From IMG/VR virus record IMGVR_UViG_3300028591_000080, positions 1-64,000 of that record: DNA of 64,000 nucleotides, one strand, 5' to 3'. How positions within the stretch are numbered: the stretch's first letter is position 1; each line of letters starts with the position of its first letter. This document shows positions 1,346 to 63,872 of this stretch, one piece after another. A model generated the notes under the pieces. The model was not told the DNA's origin and ran no database searches. It was given only the letters and a program-made list of their open reading frames with translations. This DNA comes from a virus (Duplodnaviria; Heunggongvirae; Uroviricota; Caudoviricetes). Made by a program: the position numbers and the translations under genes.

Positions 1346-1981
1346 ATTAAATATGCTTAATAATAACTACTTATTAGACTTTCATCTTATTTCATTATTA
1401 AGGTAGTTATTTGACTACAGTGACGATAAGTCTGAGCTTAAAGGAGCTACCTCTAAACTTCTTACCGCGGTCTAGCACTGAGAGGACTCATTACCTCTAA
1501 CTTTCACCGAGTATTCAGAAATAATTACAATCATTATAAAAGTTCCATGCTTTTAAGTAAGGGTTGTTCTTCTTTGTATTCGACAGATACGGCTACTCAC
1601 ATGTAAACTTCTCTTATATCCCTATTACTAGGTATTCAACTGTCAAGTCCCTTATGGATTTTCCTAGGTTTGAATAAGTTTTCCAGGCTTATTCCTAACT
1701 AGGATTCATATAACTTTTGGTTATCATCTATTGTGGAACCGAGAAGAATCATGTCTTAACTCTAATAATAACAAATACACTAACGACTATCGTAATTCTT
1801 CTTTGAAGATTGTGTCCGGTTTGATTTCAATATATACTTCCGAATCGACTTGCCATCATAGGCTATCGTCTATGAACGAAGATTTTTTGCAAGCTACGAA
1901 TCTTTGTCAGCCGCTATCCTAGCACCGTAACAAACGGTCATTCACTAGGGTAATAGGTAATCATTATTAAGCATATTTAAT
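1346..1981 (-). ncRNA. Large structured ncRNA, ROOL-like
   Basis: ~30-bp terminal helix (1346-1376 with 1951-1981) whose G.U pairs form only on the minus strand; many internal hairpins; no convincing ORF; TG-TATAAT promoter just upstream; adjacent to tRNA array. Confidence 0.7.
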
Positions 1982-2899: not shown

Positions 2900-2995
2900 T
2901 GGCAGGGGCTGCAGGATTCGAACCCGCACCGGCCGGTTTGGACTCGGCCTTTTACGGTTTTGAAGACCGCTGTGCTCCCATTACACCAAGCCCCT
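2900..2995 (-). tRNA. Opal-decoding tRNA, anticodon UCA (tRNA-Trp-like body, long variable arm)
   Basis: AGGGGCT/AGCCCCT acceptor, G73, CCA; GCGGT-CTTCAAA-ACCGT anticodon arm; 26-nt variable region with GGCCG/CGGCC stem. Confidence 0.93.
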
Positions 2996-3047
2996 AAGAG
3001 AACATAGACAATGTAATAATACAAAGCCTATGTTAAAAATTTAGCAA

Positions 3048-26585: not shown

Positions 26586-26921
26586 TTATTCTCCTTTTCA
26601 ATCAAAAGCTTTTGTTAAAATACTACTACCTTTTAATAATCCATTTCCAAATGTAATTAATCTAGCTAACTGATCTAGTTTTGGATCTGAAATAAAGACA
26701 GTATATTCTAATGGAGTCATACGCTCAATTTTACTTTTATATATAATTAATAAACAGATATCACGTAATTTTAATTCATATTTTTCTTTAAGTAATTTAT
26801 TCAATTGTCTTTCTGTATCTTTAAAATCACAACTTAAAACATGTTGAATAGCATAATAACGTATTTTATGCTTAATTGTCTGTTCATTACATGGTTTATT
26901 TAAGACTATTGAAAAATGCAT
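26586..26921 (-). CDS. Hypothetical neck-region protein (1 TGA near the C-terminus)
   Basis: Track ORF ends at TGA 26598; read-through adds WKGE before TAA. Confidence 0.6.
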
Positions 26922-27864
26922 TGACTAATTCCTCTATCTTCTTTTTTATGTCATCAGACATTTGTTTTTTATTTTGATTGTAAAGATATACAGCTAAGTC
27001 ATTTATTAATTTTTGATCTCTTAATTTAAAGTGACTTGATACTTTGATTCAAGCTTTATCTATATCTGCATTTTTTGAATATTCTTGTTTAGTACCAATA
27101 GTATGTAATAAATCAGATTTTGCGACATAAGCACCTTCATCAGCTCCAAAACTTAAGCTATCTAAAATTAAATTGATTAAAATATTTACATCTCGACCAC
27201 TTCATAAATTCAAAAGCATTTCAAGTCCAACATTTTTCTTTTCTTTTGCGATCTTTCCAAATCCAGCTCAAGCATTTCTTAAAGTCATATAATCTGTAAT
27301 TAAATGTGCTTCATCAGGTATTTTATCTTTAAAAAAGATACTTGTAAACTGAGCTTCGGTTTCTTTGTCTAATTGATTACTTTGGCTTTGTGACTTTAAT
27401 AGATCTAGAATATTTAAATATAAGTCAAAAGTTTTTTCATTTACTGTAAAAGCTTTTTTGAAGAAAATTAGATGTTTTGGCCCAAAAAATCCAGTACCAC
27501 GAATATCATCTTCTCTAATTTCTCCATTTGCTGCTCCATTATGTAGATATTGGTATCTTGTATTACCATCTGCAAATCATTTTAAACGAGCACAATTATT
27601 AGTATGTAAGAAATATACGAATGGATTTTCTTCTTCAGTATATCCAAACTTAGTTAACTCAGTTGAAAAAGCCTCTCCTAAACGATTAATAATTTCTCTA
27701 TTTTCATTTCCTCAATACTCATCTAAGTATTCATCATATAATTCATCAAATTCATCACTATCATTAGTAGCAACAGCTTTTAATTCTTGAGTTCAATTTC
27801 TAGCTTGAACATCTTCTCTTAAAAAATATTTTTTATTAGACTCGTTAAGAATATATTTTTTCAC
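26896..27864 (-). CDS. 322-aa hypothetical protein, absent from the standard-code track (6 TGA)
   Basis: GTG overlapping the upstream TAG, AAGGAG RBS; TGA at 27793, 27712, 27577, 27268, 27202, 27049; N-terminal ILNES/FLRED. Confidence 0.8.
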
Positions 27865-34380: not shown

Positions 34381-35808
34381 TTAGTCAACAATCTTACCAA
34401 ATACTAATAGACTTGGGTTAACAAGTGCCTTAGCATAGTAAGTAGAGAAGCCTTGAGCTAAACCACCATCTGGTGTACCTAATAGGTTAGTAGGAACGAT
34501 AGCCATGTAAGGAGCATATACACCTGCAGATGAAACCATATCAGAACCATTTAAACCGATGAAGTATTCACCATCATTTAATAATGGAGATACATAAACT
34601 GCAAGACCATTTAATTGACCAGCTTTATAAGGACCATAGATCTTGTTAGGAGTAGTATCCTTATAACCTTGAACGAACTCTAATACGTTAAGAACGTCTG
34701 GAGCACATACCATGTAGTTAGGTAAGAACTTCTTAGTTCTCTTGTAGATAATAGTTCTAGCCTTAGATAAAGTATTTAAGAATGAACTATAGTGTCTGAA
34801 CATATCAACACCAAGAGGTAAAGTCTTAGAGAATGTAGTTAACTTTAATTCGTCAGCAGTAGTTTCAGCCTTAGCAGCTTGATATAACATATCAACGATT
34901 TCAGTATCGATTTCATAATTTAATTCACCAACTGCTTGTTCAGCAATTTGCTTATCTAATGAGAAACCATAATCAGTCTTAGCTTGGAAAGCAGTGATTT
35001 GATCATACTTAACAGCGATACGTCTAGGTTCAGCAACTAGAGGAATGTTCTTCATAACAGGTCCAATTGTTGGAATGTCTTGAGCAGGAACATTAGTCAT
35101 TTGGAATTCGTTTGAAGCATAAATAGCTTTAATAGCACCAGCTGGAACTGCATCAGTAACAGTCTTGTACTCGAAATGATTCTTCTTAGTTTGAGCATCT
35201 CTAACAACATACTTAATATCAGCGTAAGCTACATTGTTTCTAACAGTGTATGCTACACCACCAGTGTACATATCAGAACCATCAGCAGCAACTCTATCTT
35301 GAGGAACAGCGAATGAACCCTTAACGATATCCTTAGCTTCAGTAGAAAGATCTAATGCAGCATAAGTATCAGTTGCAGCATCATAAGCAGCAGCATCTAC
35401 GATGTAAGCAGAAGTGAAGTTTTGACGAGCAGCATTCATTTCACCAAGACCGAATACACTATTGAATGTATCACCAGCTTTTACACCACCCTTATTAGTT
35501 CTTGATTGATACTCTAAGTAAGCAACAGAACCAGAGAATGAAGTTAAAGCGTGAGTAATAACTAAGTCATTAGCAATTAAGCTTGGAACTGAGATATTAG
35601 TTAAGTTTAAGCAGAATTTCTTGTAATCACCAAGATCTGTTCTAGTTGTAGCGAAAGATTCTCTCATTGAGATGAATTTATTTGTGTTTTCAATTAACAC
35701 AGCAGTGTTAAGTCTTGTTCTATCAGAAATCTTCTTACCGAAGTTTTCAGCAACGAAAGACTCAGCAACTTTAATTTGACGGCCATATTTTTCCATTAAA
35801 TTTGCCAT
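34381..35808 (-). CDS. Major capsid protein (T4 gp23-like)
   Basis: AEPRRIAVKY, ELNYEIDTEI, AGVYAPY motifs; high-expression codon usage; strong terminator. Confidence 0.93.
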   Translation of the reverse strand: MANLMEKYGRQIKVAESFVAENFGKKISDRTRLNTAVLIENTNKFISMRESFATTRTDLGDYKKFCLNLTNISVPSLIANDLVITHALTSFSGSVAYLEYQSRTNKGGVKAGDTFNSVFGLGEMNAARQNFTSAYIVDAAAYDAATDTYAALDLSTEAKDIVKGSFAVPQDRVAADGSDMYTGGVAYTVRNNVAYADIKYVVRDAQTKKNHFEYKTVTDAVPAGAIKAIYASNEFQMTNVPAQDIPTIGPVMKNIPLVAEPRRIAVKYDQITAFQAKTDYGFSLDKQIAEQAVGELNYEIDTEIVDMLYQAAKAETTADELKLTTFSKTLPLGVDMFRHYSSFLNTLSKARTIIYKRTKKFLPNYMVCAPDVLNVLEFVQGYKDTTPNKIYGPYKAGQLNGLAVYVSPLLNDGEYFIGLNGSDMVSSAGVYAPYMAIVPTNLLGTPDGGLAQGFSTYYAKALVNPSLLVFGKIVD

Positions 35809-37867: not shown

Positions 37868-37877
37868 TAATTTAGCA
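37868..37877 (-). promoter_or_regulatory. Putative late promoter box TGCTAAATTA
   Basis: Upstream of the protease-capsid operon. Confidence 0.65.
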
Positions 37878-59323: not shown

Positions 59324-59628
59324 TATTCATCTCCAAGTTCATCAATCTTTAAATAATACTTATCATTTTCAAAATCAGCCATTAAAAATATATTATACTT
59401 TATTTCATTTACGTCTATTTCAAAATAATTTGTTATTTTAACTGTTGAATTATTTGAATTCTTTGTAAAAGCTGGATATTCAGTATTAATAGCAACTTCA
59501 TCTAATAAAGAATAAACTCTTGCATATTCATCGCTATCTTCAAGATCAATAACATAAAAATGATTTTTAAATGTTCCACTTTTATTTAACTTAATTTTAT
59601 CTAAAACATCTTTGATATTATTCTTCAT
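59323..59628 (-). CDS. Hypothetical protein
   Basis: GGAG RBS before MKNNIK. Confidence 0.6.
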   Translation of the reverse strand: MKNNIKDVLDKIKLNKSGTFKNHFYVIDLEDSDEYARVYSLLDEVAINTEYPAFTKNSNNSTVKITNYFEIDVNEIKYNIFLMADFENDKYYLKIDELGDE

Positions 59629-60178
59629 TTTTATCTCCATCAAGATCCGCTATGTCTGCATCAATTACTTCAGCTTCATCTTTATCTTTAGAGTAAAGAC
59701 CTAAAGAACTTAAGAAATCATTAATATTCTTTCTTTTTTGGGTATTAATTCCTTCAAGTCTTGGATCTGTAGTTTCAACATTAACATTTGTTGTATGTTT
59801 ATTAACTTGAATTAATGTATTAGGTGTTTGTCCATTAATTAAATTATTATTCTTTTCAATTAAATCTTGAATAATCTTTAACATGTTCATTAATTGAACC
59901 ATATCCATTTCTTCTGGATGGTTTAATATTCTATCTTTTGTTTCACCTAAAACATTATCTAATAGATCACCATAACTATTTGATCTAACAATGGCTTTTT
60001 TCTTTTGATTTTGGTTGAATAAATAAAGCAAATCTTTTTGTTTTTCTTCATTTGAAGTTGTTGTAATTTGGCTAAGTATTTCTAAAGCTTCACGTTTTAA
60101 TCCATCAATATTTTCTTTTAAATCTTCATCTGATAAATCATCTACAAGGACTAAATCTTGTTTTTGTTCATCAGCCAT
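59618..60178 (-). CDS. Hypothetical helical protein (possible small terminase)
   Basis: Helical core, N-rich strand, C-terminal EVIDAD; function unconfirmed. Confidence 0.4.
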   Translation of the reverse strand: MADEQKQDLVLVDDLSDEDLKENIDGLKREALEILSQITTTSNEEKQKDLLYLFNQNQKKKAIVRSNSYGDLLDNVLGETKDRILNHPEEMDMVQLMNMLKIIQDLIEKNNNLINGQTPNTLIQVNKHTTNVNVETTDPRLEGINTQKRKNINDFLSSLGLYSKDKDEAEVIDADIADLDGDKNEE

Positions 60179-60524: not shown

Positions 60525-60785
60525 TTAATCTAAATATTTCATAATCTTTATTGGATCTACACCTTTAACATTCCATAAAGATCTTTCAGTTTCTTTTTCT
60601 AAATTATCTAACATAAAATTTAATTTATGTTGAATACATCTTCCAATTATATCTTGTTCATCGAATTTATCTGAAAAAATACTATTTATAAATAATAATC
60701 TTGTTTTAAAATTTCTATTTTCTTCTAGAAATTTAGGAGACTCCCAATCGATTCTATCTACCATGATTCTTAAGTGACTCCTCAT
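60525..60785 (-). CDS. Hypothetical protein
   Basis: ORF overlapping the upstream gene. Confidence 0.55.
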   Translation of the reverse strand: MRSHLRIMVDRIDWESPKFLEENRNFKTRLLFINSIFSDKFDEQDIIGRCIQHKLNFMLDNLEKETERSLWNVKGVDPIKIMKYLD

Positions 60786-61158
60786 CGATATTATATTCTT
60801 TAATAATTGGAATAATTTTTAAATATAAATCAAGTATTTTTTCTTTTTCTTTATCATCTTTTACATTTAATTGTCTTTGTGCATCTACTAAAGATTGACC
60901 TTCAAGATTAATATATTGATATAATAATAATGCATTTGTTAATTCTTTAAATTCTTCTTCAGTAGGAATTTTAATTGTTTGACCTGCAAAATATGCTAAA
61001 AGTCTAGTTAAATTATTTCCATCTAATAAAAAACATAATCTACTTAATGTTGCATATTCTGGAACTTCTTCTACTTTAAATAATATAAACATCATTAAAG
61101 TATAAATATCTGATAAGTGTAATTTATCTAAATTAGCTTTAATCAAGCTCTTCTTCAT
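60754..61158 (-). CDS. Mor/C-like transcription regulator (tentative)
   Basis: LLDGNNLTRLLAYFAGQTIKIP resembles the Mor-family F.G..I.IP motif. Confidence 0.45.
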   Translation of the reverse strand: MKKSLIKANLDKLHLSDIYTLMMFILFKVEEVPEYATLSRLCFLLDGNNLTRLLAYFAGQTIKIPTEEEFKELTNALLLYQYINLEGQSLVDAQRQLNVKDDKEKEKILDLYLKIIPIIKEYNIDEESLKNHGR

Positions 61159-61966
61159 AAGTGCCCTCCGGATTTGAAATCATTTTAGTTAAGATTGATT
61201 CATCAACTCTATCCATTTCGAAACAATCTAAGATTAATCTCTTTAATTTAATAAAGAATTCATTAATTAATACTCTAACATATTCAGAAAGAGATTTTGG
61301 TAAATGTCATAACGTTACCGAAACACCTTGTTGAAGCGGAACTAATTTATTTCTTTTTTCTAATATATTACGTGTATTTAATAAAATTGAAATTTTTATA
61401 TTTCTCCAATCCGATGAATCTTTTCTAAATGGTGTTGTTTTTAAAAGTTCATCGATTAGATAATCACATTGTTTAATTGATTCTGTAATTGTTGTAATTG
61501 TTTTTGAATAATTTTGAGCCCGAGCATCGGATAATAATTGTTGTTTAAATTGAAATGGATCAAAATTATTATCATTCATTTCTTCAGATAAGACCTGTCT
61601 AAATGATTGATCTTGATATTCAACTCGTCTATTGTGTAATGTTCCTTTTACATAATCTAGAATATTAACAATAGGACCAATTATTCTTCCTTTAACTGAT
61701 TTTCCACGATTATTTCAATTCTTAATTAATTGGAAATAATAGAATGAAGCTGCATGGAAGGCAAACCCATCATAGTCTGAGAAATTTACAAACATATGTT
61801 TTTTAATTGCAAGCATCTTAGTTAATAACCACAAATAATTATAAACTAGATCCTCATCTTTAGGGTATTTTCCTTTATTTTCAGCAATTCTTGGGATAAC
61901 TCCACTTTTATCTATTCATATACACATGTCACAATAAGACATACCTGTGGGTTTTTTCCATAACAT
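61139..61966 (-). CDS. Candidate late sigma factor (T4 gp55-like, 275 aa, 3 TGA)
   Basis: AGGAG RBS; TGA at 61916, 61715, 61307; LWLLTKMLAIKKHMFVNFSDYD...NILDYVK resembles gp55 region 2; next to the gp46-like gene. Confidence 0.5.
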
Positions 61967-62003
61967 ATCGATCTCCTATTATATAAAATATAATACAATA
62001 TTT

Positions 62004-63872
62004 TTAGTATATTATCGAGCTGATGCCTTCAGCGCTTTTTTCTACTCTGATCTCTGAGTCAATAGGTAAAGATAATTGATTAGCCATATGACTTATAATA
62101 AAGACAGATTCAGTTGAATTTAATTCATTTTCAATTAAGTTCATTACTGCATTACAGCTCTTTTCATCTAAGAAATCTGTAATTTCATCTAATGCAAGAA
62201 TATTTGAATTTAAATTTAAATAATTCTTTAATAAATCTCTTAATGTTAATTGAATAATTAAATCAACTCTAGTTCTTTCACCACCAGAAAGACTCTCAAT
62301 TGGCTTATTACAATAAGAAATATCAAGATTATTTCCGTTTAAAACAATTTCAATTTCTTGAGTTCCGAAAACTGTTTGACTAAATGTTTTAGATTTAGAA
62401 TTAATATACTTAATAACATTTTGTAATAAAATACCTCTAAAATCACGTTTAATTAAACTTTCCATCTTCTTAACTACTTGAGTATGTTCTAAGATTTCTT
62501 GTTTAGAAGTATTTAATTCTTGAACTTCTAAGTCTAATTTTAATAAAATCTTTTCAGTTTCTTCTTTTTTAGAATTTAAATCATTTAATCTTGATAAATA
62601 ATTAGCTTTATTTGTCTGAATAGAACTTAATTTATTATTTAAATTTAAAATTTGAGTATTTAATTTACTTAAATTTCCATTATATAAAGATATTTTAGTA
62701 TTTAAATCTGCCTTTTTCTTATCTAAATCTGAAATATCTTTATCAAAAGTATTTTTAATTTCTAATTCATATTTAGCTTTTGTTTCTTTTAATTTATTAA
62801 GTTCTTGATCTATTACATTAATTTGTTTATCAATTTCAACTATTCTAGTTTCTTGTTCTTTAGTATCTGGTTTAGTTACACCAGCTAACTTTTGGTGACA
62901 AGTAGGACAGACATCTACAATAGATTTTATATGTTGAATTTGATGTTGTAAATTAGATTTTTCAGAATTTAAAGCAATTTTCTCAGCATTTACTGAATTA
63001 AATTTTGTATTAAATGCTTCAAACATAGATTGTAATTGTTCTGATTTATCTGAAGTTAATTTTAAATATTTAGTATTTACTGCAGATAATTCATTATTAA
63101 ATTCTGTTAATTCTTTTGATTTATCATCATATAATGTTCTATTTGATTCAATCTCGGATTCAAGATTTTTAATCTCAGTATCAAAGTTTGAATTAGTTTG
63201 AAGTGTTTCTAATTCTGTAGTAATAGTATCTAATGTTGTTCGATTGGTCTGAATTAAAGTATTTTTTACTAAAATCTTATCTTCAGTATTTCTTAAATCT
63301 GTATCTAAAACATTAAGACGATTTTCGATTTTTTCTCTAATTTCTTTTACCATAAAATCTGTTTTTGTTAGATTTTCTAGTTTTTCTTTTCTTTTTGCTG
63401 GAGTTAATGCAGATAATCTATCTGGAAATCCTTGTCCAATTAAAATACTAGATCCAAGTAAGTCTCTATTTATATCTGGTAATTGTTCTGCTAAGATAAC
63501 TTCAGAATCTCTTAATGTTTTTCCAGAAATATCTTCACCATTTTTAATTATTTTTAAATCTGATTTAGGGTTAAAAATTCGTGTGATAATAAAATTATCT
63601 TCGAAAAAGTTCATATCAACAGTTACCCAACAAGAATTTTCTTCTAAAAATAAATTTTTAAATCCACTACGTTGGCCAGTAAGTGTTTCTCCGATTAAAC
63701 ATGCGCACAGTGCATTAATCCAAGCAGATTTACCTGATCCATTAGATGCGGCATTATCTTTTTCAAAATTATTTTTTCCACTTACTAAACAAAATCCTTT
63801 ATCTCTTAAATCAATTTCGGCATCTCCATAAGAATAAAAATTATGTATCTTTACAGTGTTAAATTTTATCAT
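62004..63872 (-). CDS. SbcC/Rad50 (T4 gp46-like) recombination ATPase
   Basis: NGSGKS, CPTC hook, LSGGE, LDE, ISH. Confidence 0.93.
   Translation of the reverse strand: MIKFNTVKIHNFYSYGDAEIDLRDKGFCLVSGKNNFEKDNAASNGSGKSAWINALCACLIGETLTGQRSGFKNLFLEENSCWVTVDMNFFEDNFIITRIFNPKSDLKIIKNGEDISGKTLRDSEVILAEQLPDINRDLLGSSILIGQGFPDRLSALTPAKRKEKLENLTKTDFMVKEIREKIENRLNVLDTDLRNTEDKILVKNTLIQTNRTTLDTITTELETLQTNSNFDTEIKNLESEIESNRTLYDDKSKELTEFNNELSAVNTKYLKLTSDKSEQLQSMFEAFNTKFNSVNAEKIALNSEKSNLQHQIQHIKSIVDVCPTCHQKLAGVTKPDTKEQETRIVEIDKQINVIDQELNKLKETKAKYELEIKNTFDKDISDLDKKKADLNTKISLYNGNLSKLNTQILNLNNKLSSIQTNKANYLSRLNDLNSKKEETEKILLKLDLEVQELNTSKQEILEHTQVVKKMESLIKRDFRGILLQNVIKYINSKSKTFSQTVFGTQEIEIVLNGNNLDISYCNKPIESLSGGERTRVDLIIQLTLRDLLKNYLNLNSNILALDEITDFLDEKSCNAVMNLIENELNSTESVFIISHMANQLSLPIDSEIRVEKSAEGISSIIY

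Follow-up and report, generated by a model that had tools for sequence, protein, structure and literature searches.

A candidate late sigma factor gene with recoded stop codons in a code 4 phage and its relatives

Does a phage that reads TGA as a sense codon subject the regulator of its own late genes to that reading? The question is raised by a gene in the window (the whole 64,000-nucleotide stretch analysed here), which covers the opening 64 kb of a gut jumbo phage record of 230,252 bp and 28% GC, rated complete. The genome encodes a T4-like capsid, protease and portal along with a family-A polymerase module and a 380-aa, beta-clamp-like processivity factor (phrog_947). A preliminary description had taken this gene, beside gp46 and whole only with read-through from a first TGA at codon 17, for a gp55-like sigma factor through which the phage tRNA would govern late transcription. 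The locus comprises the following features.

61139–61966, minus strand: candidate late sigma factor gene, 275 aa in code 4; residues ~1–125 sigma region-2-like, residues 135–265 a helical domain of no assigned family
61916–61918, minus strand: in-frame TGA, codon 17 (first base 61918); column Phe/Tyr, Trp in 2/119 homologues
61715–61717, minus strand: in-frame TGA, codon 84 (first base 61717); Gln prevails in the column, with Trp in the closest relatives
61307–61309, minus strand: in-frame TGA, codon 220 (first base 61309); Trp in 119/119 homologues
61973–61977, minus strand: Shine-Dalgarno AGGAG, 6 nt before the ATG of the sigma gene
61989–61998, minus strand: middle-type, -10-only box (ATTGTATWATA class) before the sigma gene
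62004–63872, minus strand: gp46/SbcC-like nuclease subunit gene, conserved upstream neighbour, TGA-free here
60754–61158, minus strand: conserved 134-aa gene overlapping the sigma stop; a homologue also adjoins the counterpart in phage SP-15

The frame, its TGAs and its place beside gp46 were all borne out. Read from 61966 to 61139, it stays open for 275 codons if TGA is translated, with three of its Trp codons as TGA and the other three as TGG; in code 11 the product ends after 16 aa, and a check for restarts found no ribosome sites at the internal ATGs. Since 134 database proteins match the product at E ≤ 0.001, mostly at 41–46% identity and over its full length, and codon 220 falls on an invariant Trp, sequence comparison confirms a real conserved gene. 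Its family is large, unannotated and of phages (522 representatives at 50% clustering). The gene is single-copy in each of 16 genomes and its position behind gp46 is kept among relatives; the box that precedes it here is missing in many orthologues, which are co-transcribed directly behind gp46. The product of 60754–61158 is a possible cofactor of the candidate sigma; a Mor identity for it was rejected (E 0.11, in 1/11 members only). Also in the operon is a conserved, Trp-free 186-aa gene (59618–60178, minus strand) with TAG-rich orthologues in code-15 relatives (28/77), whose product, by eye, looks like a small terminase subunit.

Coding coverage of the genome rises from 0.86 to 0.93 when in-frame TGA is read. 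Residues opposite its TGAs in code-11 orthologues are Trp in 58/123 cases and mostly Tyr or Phe in the rest, as for TGG, and with the invariant Trp at codon 220 this indicates that TGA is a Trp codon in this phage. TGA supplies 138 Trp codons and TGG ~660, and the TGA share of Trp codons is 28/102 in the late/virion module, 3/53 in the replication module and 1/157 in early genes, a bias of recoding to late genes that is a feature of code 4 phages. As early genes hold 1 TGA against 156 TGG, the host appears to use the standard code; homologous contigs are binned with Lachnospiraceae, Bacilli and Bacteroidales, although such binning is unreliable as host evidence. Neither TrpRS (PF00579) nor release factor RF1 (PF00472) was found in the 100%-complete record. 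The gp46-like, topA and SNF2-like genes have 2, 6 and 3 Trp codons, respectively, and all 11 are TGG, as described earlier. The rule holds for these three genes here but not beyond them: gp47/SbcD has a TGA at codon 39, and TGA makes up 2/14 of the Trp codons of gp46 in code-4 relatives, 7/20 in SNF2 orthologues and 7/36 in topA orthologues. The major capsid gene (34381–35808, minus strand) has no Trp codon here and 0/22 TGA in code-4 relatives, which suggests that read-through is costly for abundant proteins.

A tRNA that could read these codons lies near the start of the window.

2900–2995, minus strand: UCA-anticodon tRNA whose acceptor is of Trp type (A1-U72, G73) and whose variable arm is unusually long
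3015–3024, minus strand: middle-type box, ~20 nt before the tRNA; a box of this class also lies directly before the UCA tRNAs of relatives G008 and G009
3037–3046, minus strand: poor late-like box, with T for A at +9 and without the downstream TG; not conserved

By its anticodon the tRNA is a candidate opal suppressor. The UCA tRNA was found in three genomes (this one, G008 and G009), with the middle box before all three. Selenocysteine as its reading was rejected, an ordinary tRNA model scoring best and TGA aligning with Trp. Its body is of Trp type and carries a variable arm of ~25 nt, whereas the UCA tRNAs of G008 and G009 are short-armed; the long arm and G73 could attract SerRS too. No UCA tRNA was detected in G010, a complete, heavily TGA-recoded code 4 genome with only five RNA genes, and a relaxed ARAGORN search of G010 and G005 returned only implausible intron-split matches. 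Beside the tRNA array lies a full-length ROOL RNA (1356–1973, minus strand; RF03087, 252 bits). The phage also encodes a tmRNA (genome positions 228755–229128, minus strand), as does G010, which could be relevant to ribosomes stalled at recoded codons.

To ask whether the protein is a sigma factor, fold and feature searches were carried out with a standard-code orthologue, P0038 (45% identical), aligned with database proteins only, whose model (pLDDT 91.7) has the same helix order as an earlier model of the window protein. In a comparison with 48,161 solved chains, the highest-scoring match was 7d7d_F (Z 8.4, 115 residues, rmsd 6.6), followed by ShbA and SigB (Z 7.8; SigB rmsd 2.8), SigC, SigK, BldN and SigE. 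7D7D is a T4 gp55 complex (PMC7892883), and its chain F is presumably gp55. Sigma chains account for 25 of the best 42 rows, all on residues ~1–125, and isolated sigma-2 domains align to residues ~10–125 with Z 7–8.4 and rmsd 2.2–4, although Z of 7–8 lies within the chance range for helical bundles (TetR C-domains reach 6–7.2). This consistent hit list, a language-model feature score of 0.95 to a cluster that is 100% Sigma70_r2, and the presence of SigF and sigma-2 rows among the matches of an Atlas shape search together make it very probable that the modelled N-terminal domain is a sigma-2 domain. Foldseek against the PDB, by contrast, gave nothing but long-helix noise. Searches of the protein and its family against Pfam, PHROG and the PDB by sequence or profile gave no sigma match, Pfam Sigma70_r2 matching 0/129 family members and nothing in the genome. 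The C-terminal part (134–251) had no sigma-4 structural match listed and no match to PF04545; its feature matches to Sigma70_r4 clusters were weak (0.82–0.85). A second sigma factor or paralogue was sought in the genome with no result, and no phage RNA polymerase was seen in it.

The term gp55-like fits the fold, the gene position and the -10-only promoter logic but not the sequence or the extra C-terminal domain. As hhalign of the 129-row family profile gave T4 gp55, a single-sequence template, a probability of only 0.1%, the protein works at most like gp55, and membership of the gp55 family goes beyond the evidence. Like gp55, it combines a sigma-2 fold with a -10-only promoter lacking a -35 and would act with the host polymerase (PMC7892883), if it is indeed the reader of that promoter; as in T4, the gene lies near gp46/gp47 in a genome with T4-like head genes, and its product has an acidic C-terminal tail. 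Unlike gp55, it has 275 rather than 185 aa, an extra helical domain, no sequence similarity and a different box; the phage also differs from T4 in pairing DNA polymerase A with a beta-clamp-like factor, and T4 gates late transcription by its sliding clamp, not by the code.

Three promoter classes, all predicted from motif placement, partition the genome. Early genes (150–175 kb region) have host-type TATTTACA-17-TGnTATAAT promoters. An ATTGTATWATA middle class precedes replication genes, gp46, the candidate sigma gene and the tRNA; it sits in the host -10 register, mostly without a -35 (a 5/6 match at spacer 17 in only 15/260 sites). The box upstream of the sigma gene that had been described as host-type, TGTATTAT, is present (61990–61997) but belongs to this middle class and not to the host-type promoters of the phage. 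Virion operons are preceded by TGCTAAATTA followed by nnTG, and in the logo of this late box (155 sites) nothing upstream of position -5 is conserved, as in a -10-only promoter without a -35; A stands at +9 in 94% and TG at +12/+13 in 78%/64%. Exact copies in the window are:

37868–37877, minus strand: late box at the head of the operon for prohead protease and major capsid
14967, 22188, 25818, 33396, 33461, 38451, 44925, 49008 and 55520: further exact late boxes

The 230,252-bp genome has 28 exact copies including these 10; every copy lies on the coding strand, and 26 are intergenic. With one mismatch allowed, 50 were seen against 19.7 expected, a number reached in 0/100 shuffles. The box occurs in 15/15 near relatives, recoded or not, and is a top de novo upstream motif in the distant G046, G018 and G055; it travels with the candidate sigma family. 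Genes behind it hold most TGAs, as in G008, where the TGA share is 291/386 in the late, 20/249 in the middle and 0/37 in the early class. Eight genes at genome positions 104214–111393 (minus strand), which have no orthologues in the relatives examined, lie behind middle-type boxes and have ~30 TGA against 5 TGG, the densest in the genome, and the lone plus-strand gene at 71732–73387, within the replication module, has a late box and three TGAs.

That the candidate sigma reads TGCTAAATTA is suggested by its co-occurrence with the box and by elimination: middle-box genes and the tRNA must act before the switch and avoid the recoded codon, leaving the late box as the target, although no reader of the middle box was found, which makes the elimination incomplete.

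We then followed the recoded codons through relatives. In a near set of 16 genomes (11 code 4, 5 code 11), whose codes are interleaved on the core-gene tree and changed at least three times, the sigma gene has 2–5 TGAs in 11/11 code-4 genomes and none in the five code-11 genomes, and is the sole orthogroup with TGAs in all 11. Pooled TGA over Trp codons are 35/46 for the sigma gene, 34/478 for replication genes and 14/62 for the genes just downstream. In 11/11 near orthologues, recoding sets in within the first 50 codons. The preliminary description had proposed conservation of the TGAs as a check: stops recur in all the recoded relatives examined, but their individual positions differ between lineages and none is common to all. 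The sigma gene of the code-11 member L020/G003, nested among code-4 relatives, has TGG at five sites, of which four or five are TGA in sister lineages; this fits a reversion to the standard code.

The pattern extends to an out-of-sample set of homologues at 25–42% identity, with eight TGA lineages (sigma 17/22, neighbours 85/236) and five TAG lineages (sigma 24/54 Gln codons, neighbours 110/673). Used as an independent marker, the portal gene agrees with the sigma gene on recoded stops in 24/24 genomes (4 recoded, 20 clean). Where recoding is shown outside the sigma gene, 21/21 relatives have sigma stops (TGA or TAG), a count from which G004, L146, L217 and L273–L275 were left out as recoding there rests mainly on the sigma gene, and 25/25 non-recoded controls are clean of them; three further contigs have 3–5 TGAs in the gene. 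Measured against the late-gene rate of their own genomes, sigma genes have 23 recoded codons where 14.7 are expected (P = 0.0006) and, in a second comparison, 24 where 11.7 are expected (P = 6e-5), binomial values that ignore overdispersion and lineages that are not fully independent, and are therefore indicative only. There are exceptions: in G030 (TAG) the sigma share (3/9) is no higher than that of replication genes (64/204), and L182 has a single TGA, at codon 230, past the sigma-2 domain. In G046 the sigma gene has 6/15 TAG, gp46 directly upstream 0/27 and replication genes 0/167; in G050 it has 6/13 and gp46 0/29. Because in both the sigma gene follows gp46 without an intervening promoter and yet is TAG-rich, the contrast in recoding points to the level of translation, not transcript timing. 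The dependence of the gene on read-through is thus strongly supported and wider than first described, embracing both TGA and TAG lineages.

We consider it reasonably likely that the gene encodes a late sigma factor whose translation depends on the code change imposed by the phage. If so, late transcription is probably conditional on the code switch, and the change of code probably has to precede the switch-on of virion genes. In the order of events that we propose, host sigma-A would read the early promoters, whose genes avoid TGA, and -10-only middle boxes would drive the replication genes, the gp46–sigma transcript and the UCA tRNA. Replication proteins would be made in the host code while the sigma frame halts at codon 17, until the suppressor tRNA, suitably charged, outcompetes host RF2 and full-length sigma is made. 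This protein would join host RNA polymerase and open TGCTAAATTA promoters, giving late mRNAs that need read-through themselves. Because both the sigma gene and the late mRNAs need read-through, suppression would lie upstream of late transcription and late translation alike, and we propose a coherent feed-forward arrangement rather than a feedback loop. A basal leak at UGA in Firmicutes could supply some of the protein.

The alternative of a loop, in which the late sigma would transcribe the tRNA from 3037–3046 and make the switch bistable, goes back to the preliminary description and seems improbable to us. A box is present there, matching 9/10 bases, and other intergenic, correctly oriented sites also vary at the tenth position; nevertheless, called near-consensus, it has one mismatch and misses three consensus positions in all (the +9 A and the +12/+13 TG), the middle box is nearer to the tRNA, and the tRNAs of G008 and G009 have only a middle box within 260 nt. 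About equally improbable is that the protein is no sigma factor but a late helical DNA-binding regulator or morphogenesis factor, recoded like any late protein. This would account for the lack of a sequence match to any sigma family, the middling Z, the C-terminal half of no assigned family and the TAG-rich operon neighbour, but sigma-2 domains dominate the structural list and are matched independently by the Sigma70_r2 feature, T4-like head genes and gp46 adjacency agree with a sigma factor, and a phage-specific late box of the -10-only kind calls for a reader in a genome where neither an RNA polymerase nor another sigma was seen. Slightly more probable, if still unlikely, is that late transcription is independent of the tRNA, with the sigma reading the middle box or both boxes, or UGA leak sufficing: only one sigma-like gene was found, yet there are two phage-specific box classes, and G010 has no detectable suppressor tRNA. 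However, TGA is avoided by the genes under the middle box, to which the tRNA itself belongs, such that a TGA-laden reader would stall the cascade; 3–7 serial stops make leak products scarce; and TAG lineages show the same pattern. That the host itself uses code 4 (Mollicutes-like), TGA being an ordinary Trp codon and no gate existing, we regard as highly improbable: the 28% GC and two homologous contigs binned, unreliably, with 'Bacilli' genomes would agree with it, whereas the excess of TGG over TGA, overall and above all in early genes, the phage's own UCA tRNA and the interleaving of code-11, code-4 and code-15 members in one group speak against it.

Dependence of the late sigma on read-through holds under either origin, selection or drift, and we see the balance between the two as about even. 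It is possible, although we lean against it, that in a widespread group of gut myophages stops in the late sigma were repeatedly selected under two codes, the suppressor tRNA being a checkpoint that licenses the late programme. The idea of a gate as a selected device found no backing in codon shares, the recoded share equalling the neutral expectation from AT bias: TGA makes up 76–77% of the sigma Trp codons (0.70–0.96 expected from mutation) and TAG 44% of the Gln codons (0.37–0.56 expected). Neutral tolerance, in which the recoded codon is not selected against in a scarce sigma needed late and accumulates there by AT-biased mutation, has an even chance of being right and is compatible with the mechanics of dependence proposed above. 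Given 3–6 Trp or ~10 Gln codons, every lineage would be expected to have one recoded codon or more; the lack of a TGA position common to all lineages agrees with this, as do similar shares elsewhere (14/15 in 26896–27864; ~36% TAG in orthologues of 59618–60178), and the absence of TGA from the abundant capsid gene (0/22) means that abundance accounts for part of the pattern. Against neutrality, sigma attains equilibrium in both codes, a level that most late genes fall well short of, the first recoded codon falls at or before codon 50 in all 11 near orthologues, and even lightly recoded genomes have recoded sigma genes (G005, 4/4 vs 1/56; G055, 3/4 vs 10/77 in late genes; L146, 3/4 vs 0/26). 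Full relaxation in a scarce protein needed late explains the data as well as selection does.

The setting resembles that of recoded gut phages (Jade, Sapphire, Agate, Lak and crAss-like; 10.1101/2021.08.26.457843; PMC7886860; PMC6784885; proteomics in PMC9523058), where recoding (TGA as Trp or TAG as Gln) is likewise concentrated in structural modules with replication genes largely spared, in AT-rich genomes with a suppressor tRNA and a code that varies within the clade; unlike two Jade genomes, this phage has no TrpRS or release factor. A role in timing has been proposed for these phages, as a post-transcriptional block on structural and lysis genes (10.1101/2021.08.26.457843), and the word 'sigma' is absent from that preprint by Borges et al. 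Our literature searches, incomplete in coverage, turned up no paper in which a late transcription factor is itself recoded. Late-gene recoding is already known; recoded stops in a probable late transcription factor are new and, as a pattern, well supported. Why phages recode stops is an open question, and the timing model, drawn from where codons fall across many structural genes, does not lend itself to gene-by-gene testing. Here its prediction narrows to one regulator: if it is true, the start of late transcription would hinge on three codons of a single gene, adding a transcriptional layer to the model with the same placement under TGA and TAG recoding.

The late box has an experimentally mapped parallel in Kayvirus (Twort-like) late promoters, TGTTATATTA without a -35, which are attributed to a phage sigma factor (PMC7698491). 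They share 8/10 bases with TGCTAAATTA, and both phages have host-type early promoters; Kayvirus, however, uses the standard code, with no middle class reported (PMC7698491). A tblastn search of cultured phages with family members gave no match. Profile and structure comparison, in turn, identified the hypothetical protein SP15_139 of Bacillus phage SP-15 (KT624200) as a distant homologue (hhalign 85.7%, E 5.5e-6), and Foldseek gave a match at E 1.6e-4 to a 225-aa SP-15 protein. Gene order is as here, SP15_139 lying behind gp47–gp46 and before the homologue of 60754–61158. The SP-15 genome has only three exact late boxes, so its box may differ. A large unannotated phage family thereby acquires a candidate function and a candidate promoter, and SP-15, cultured and of standard code, with SP15_139 itself uncharacterised, is a relative in which the sigma function is open to testing.
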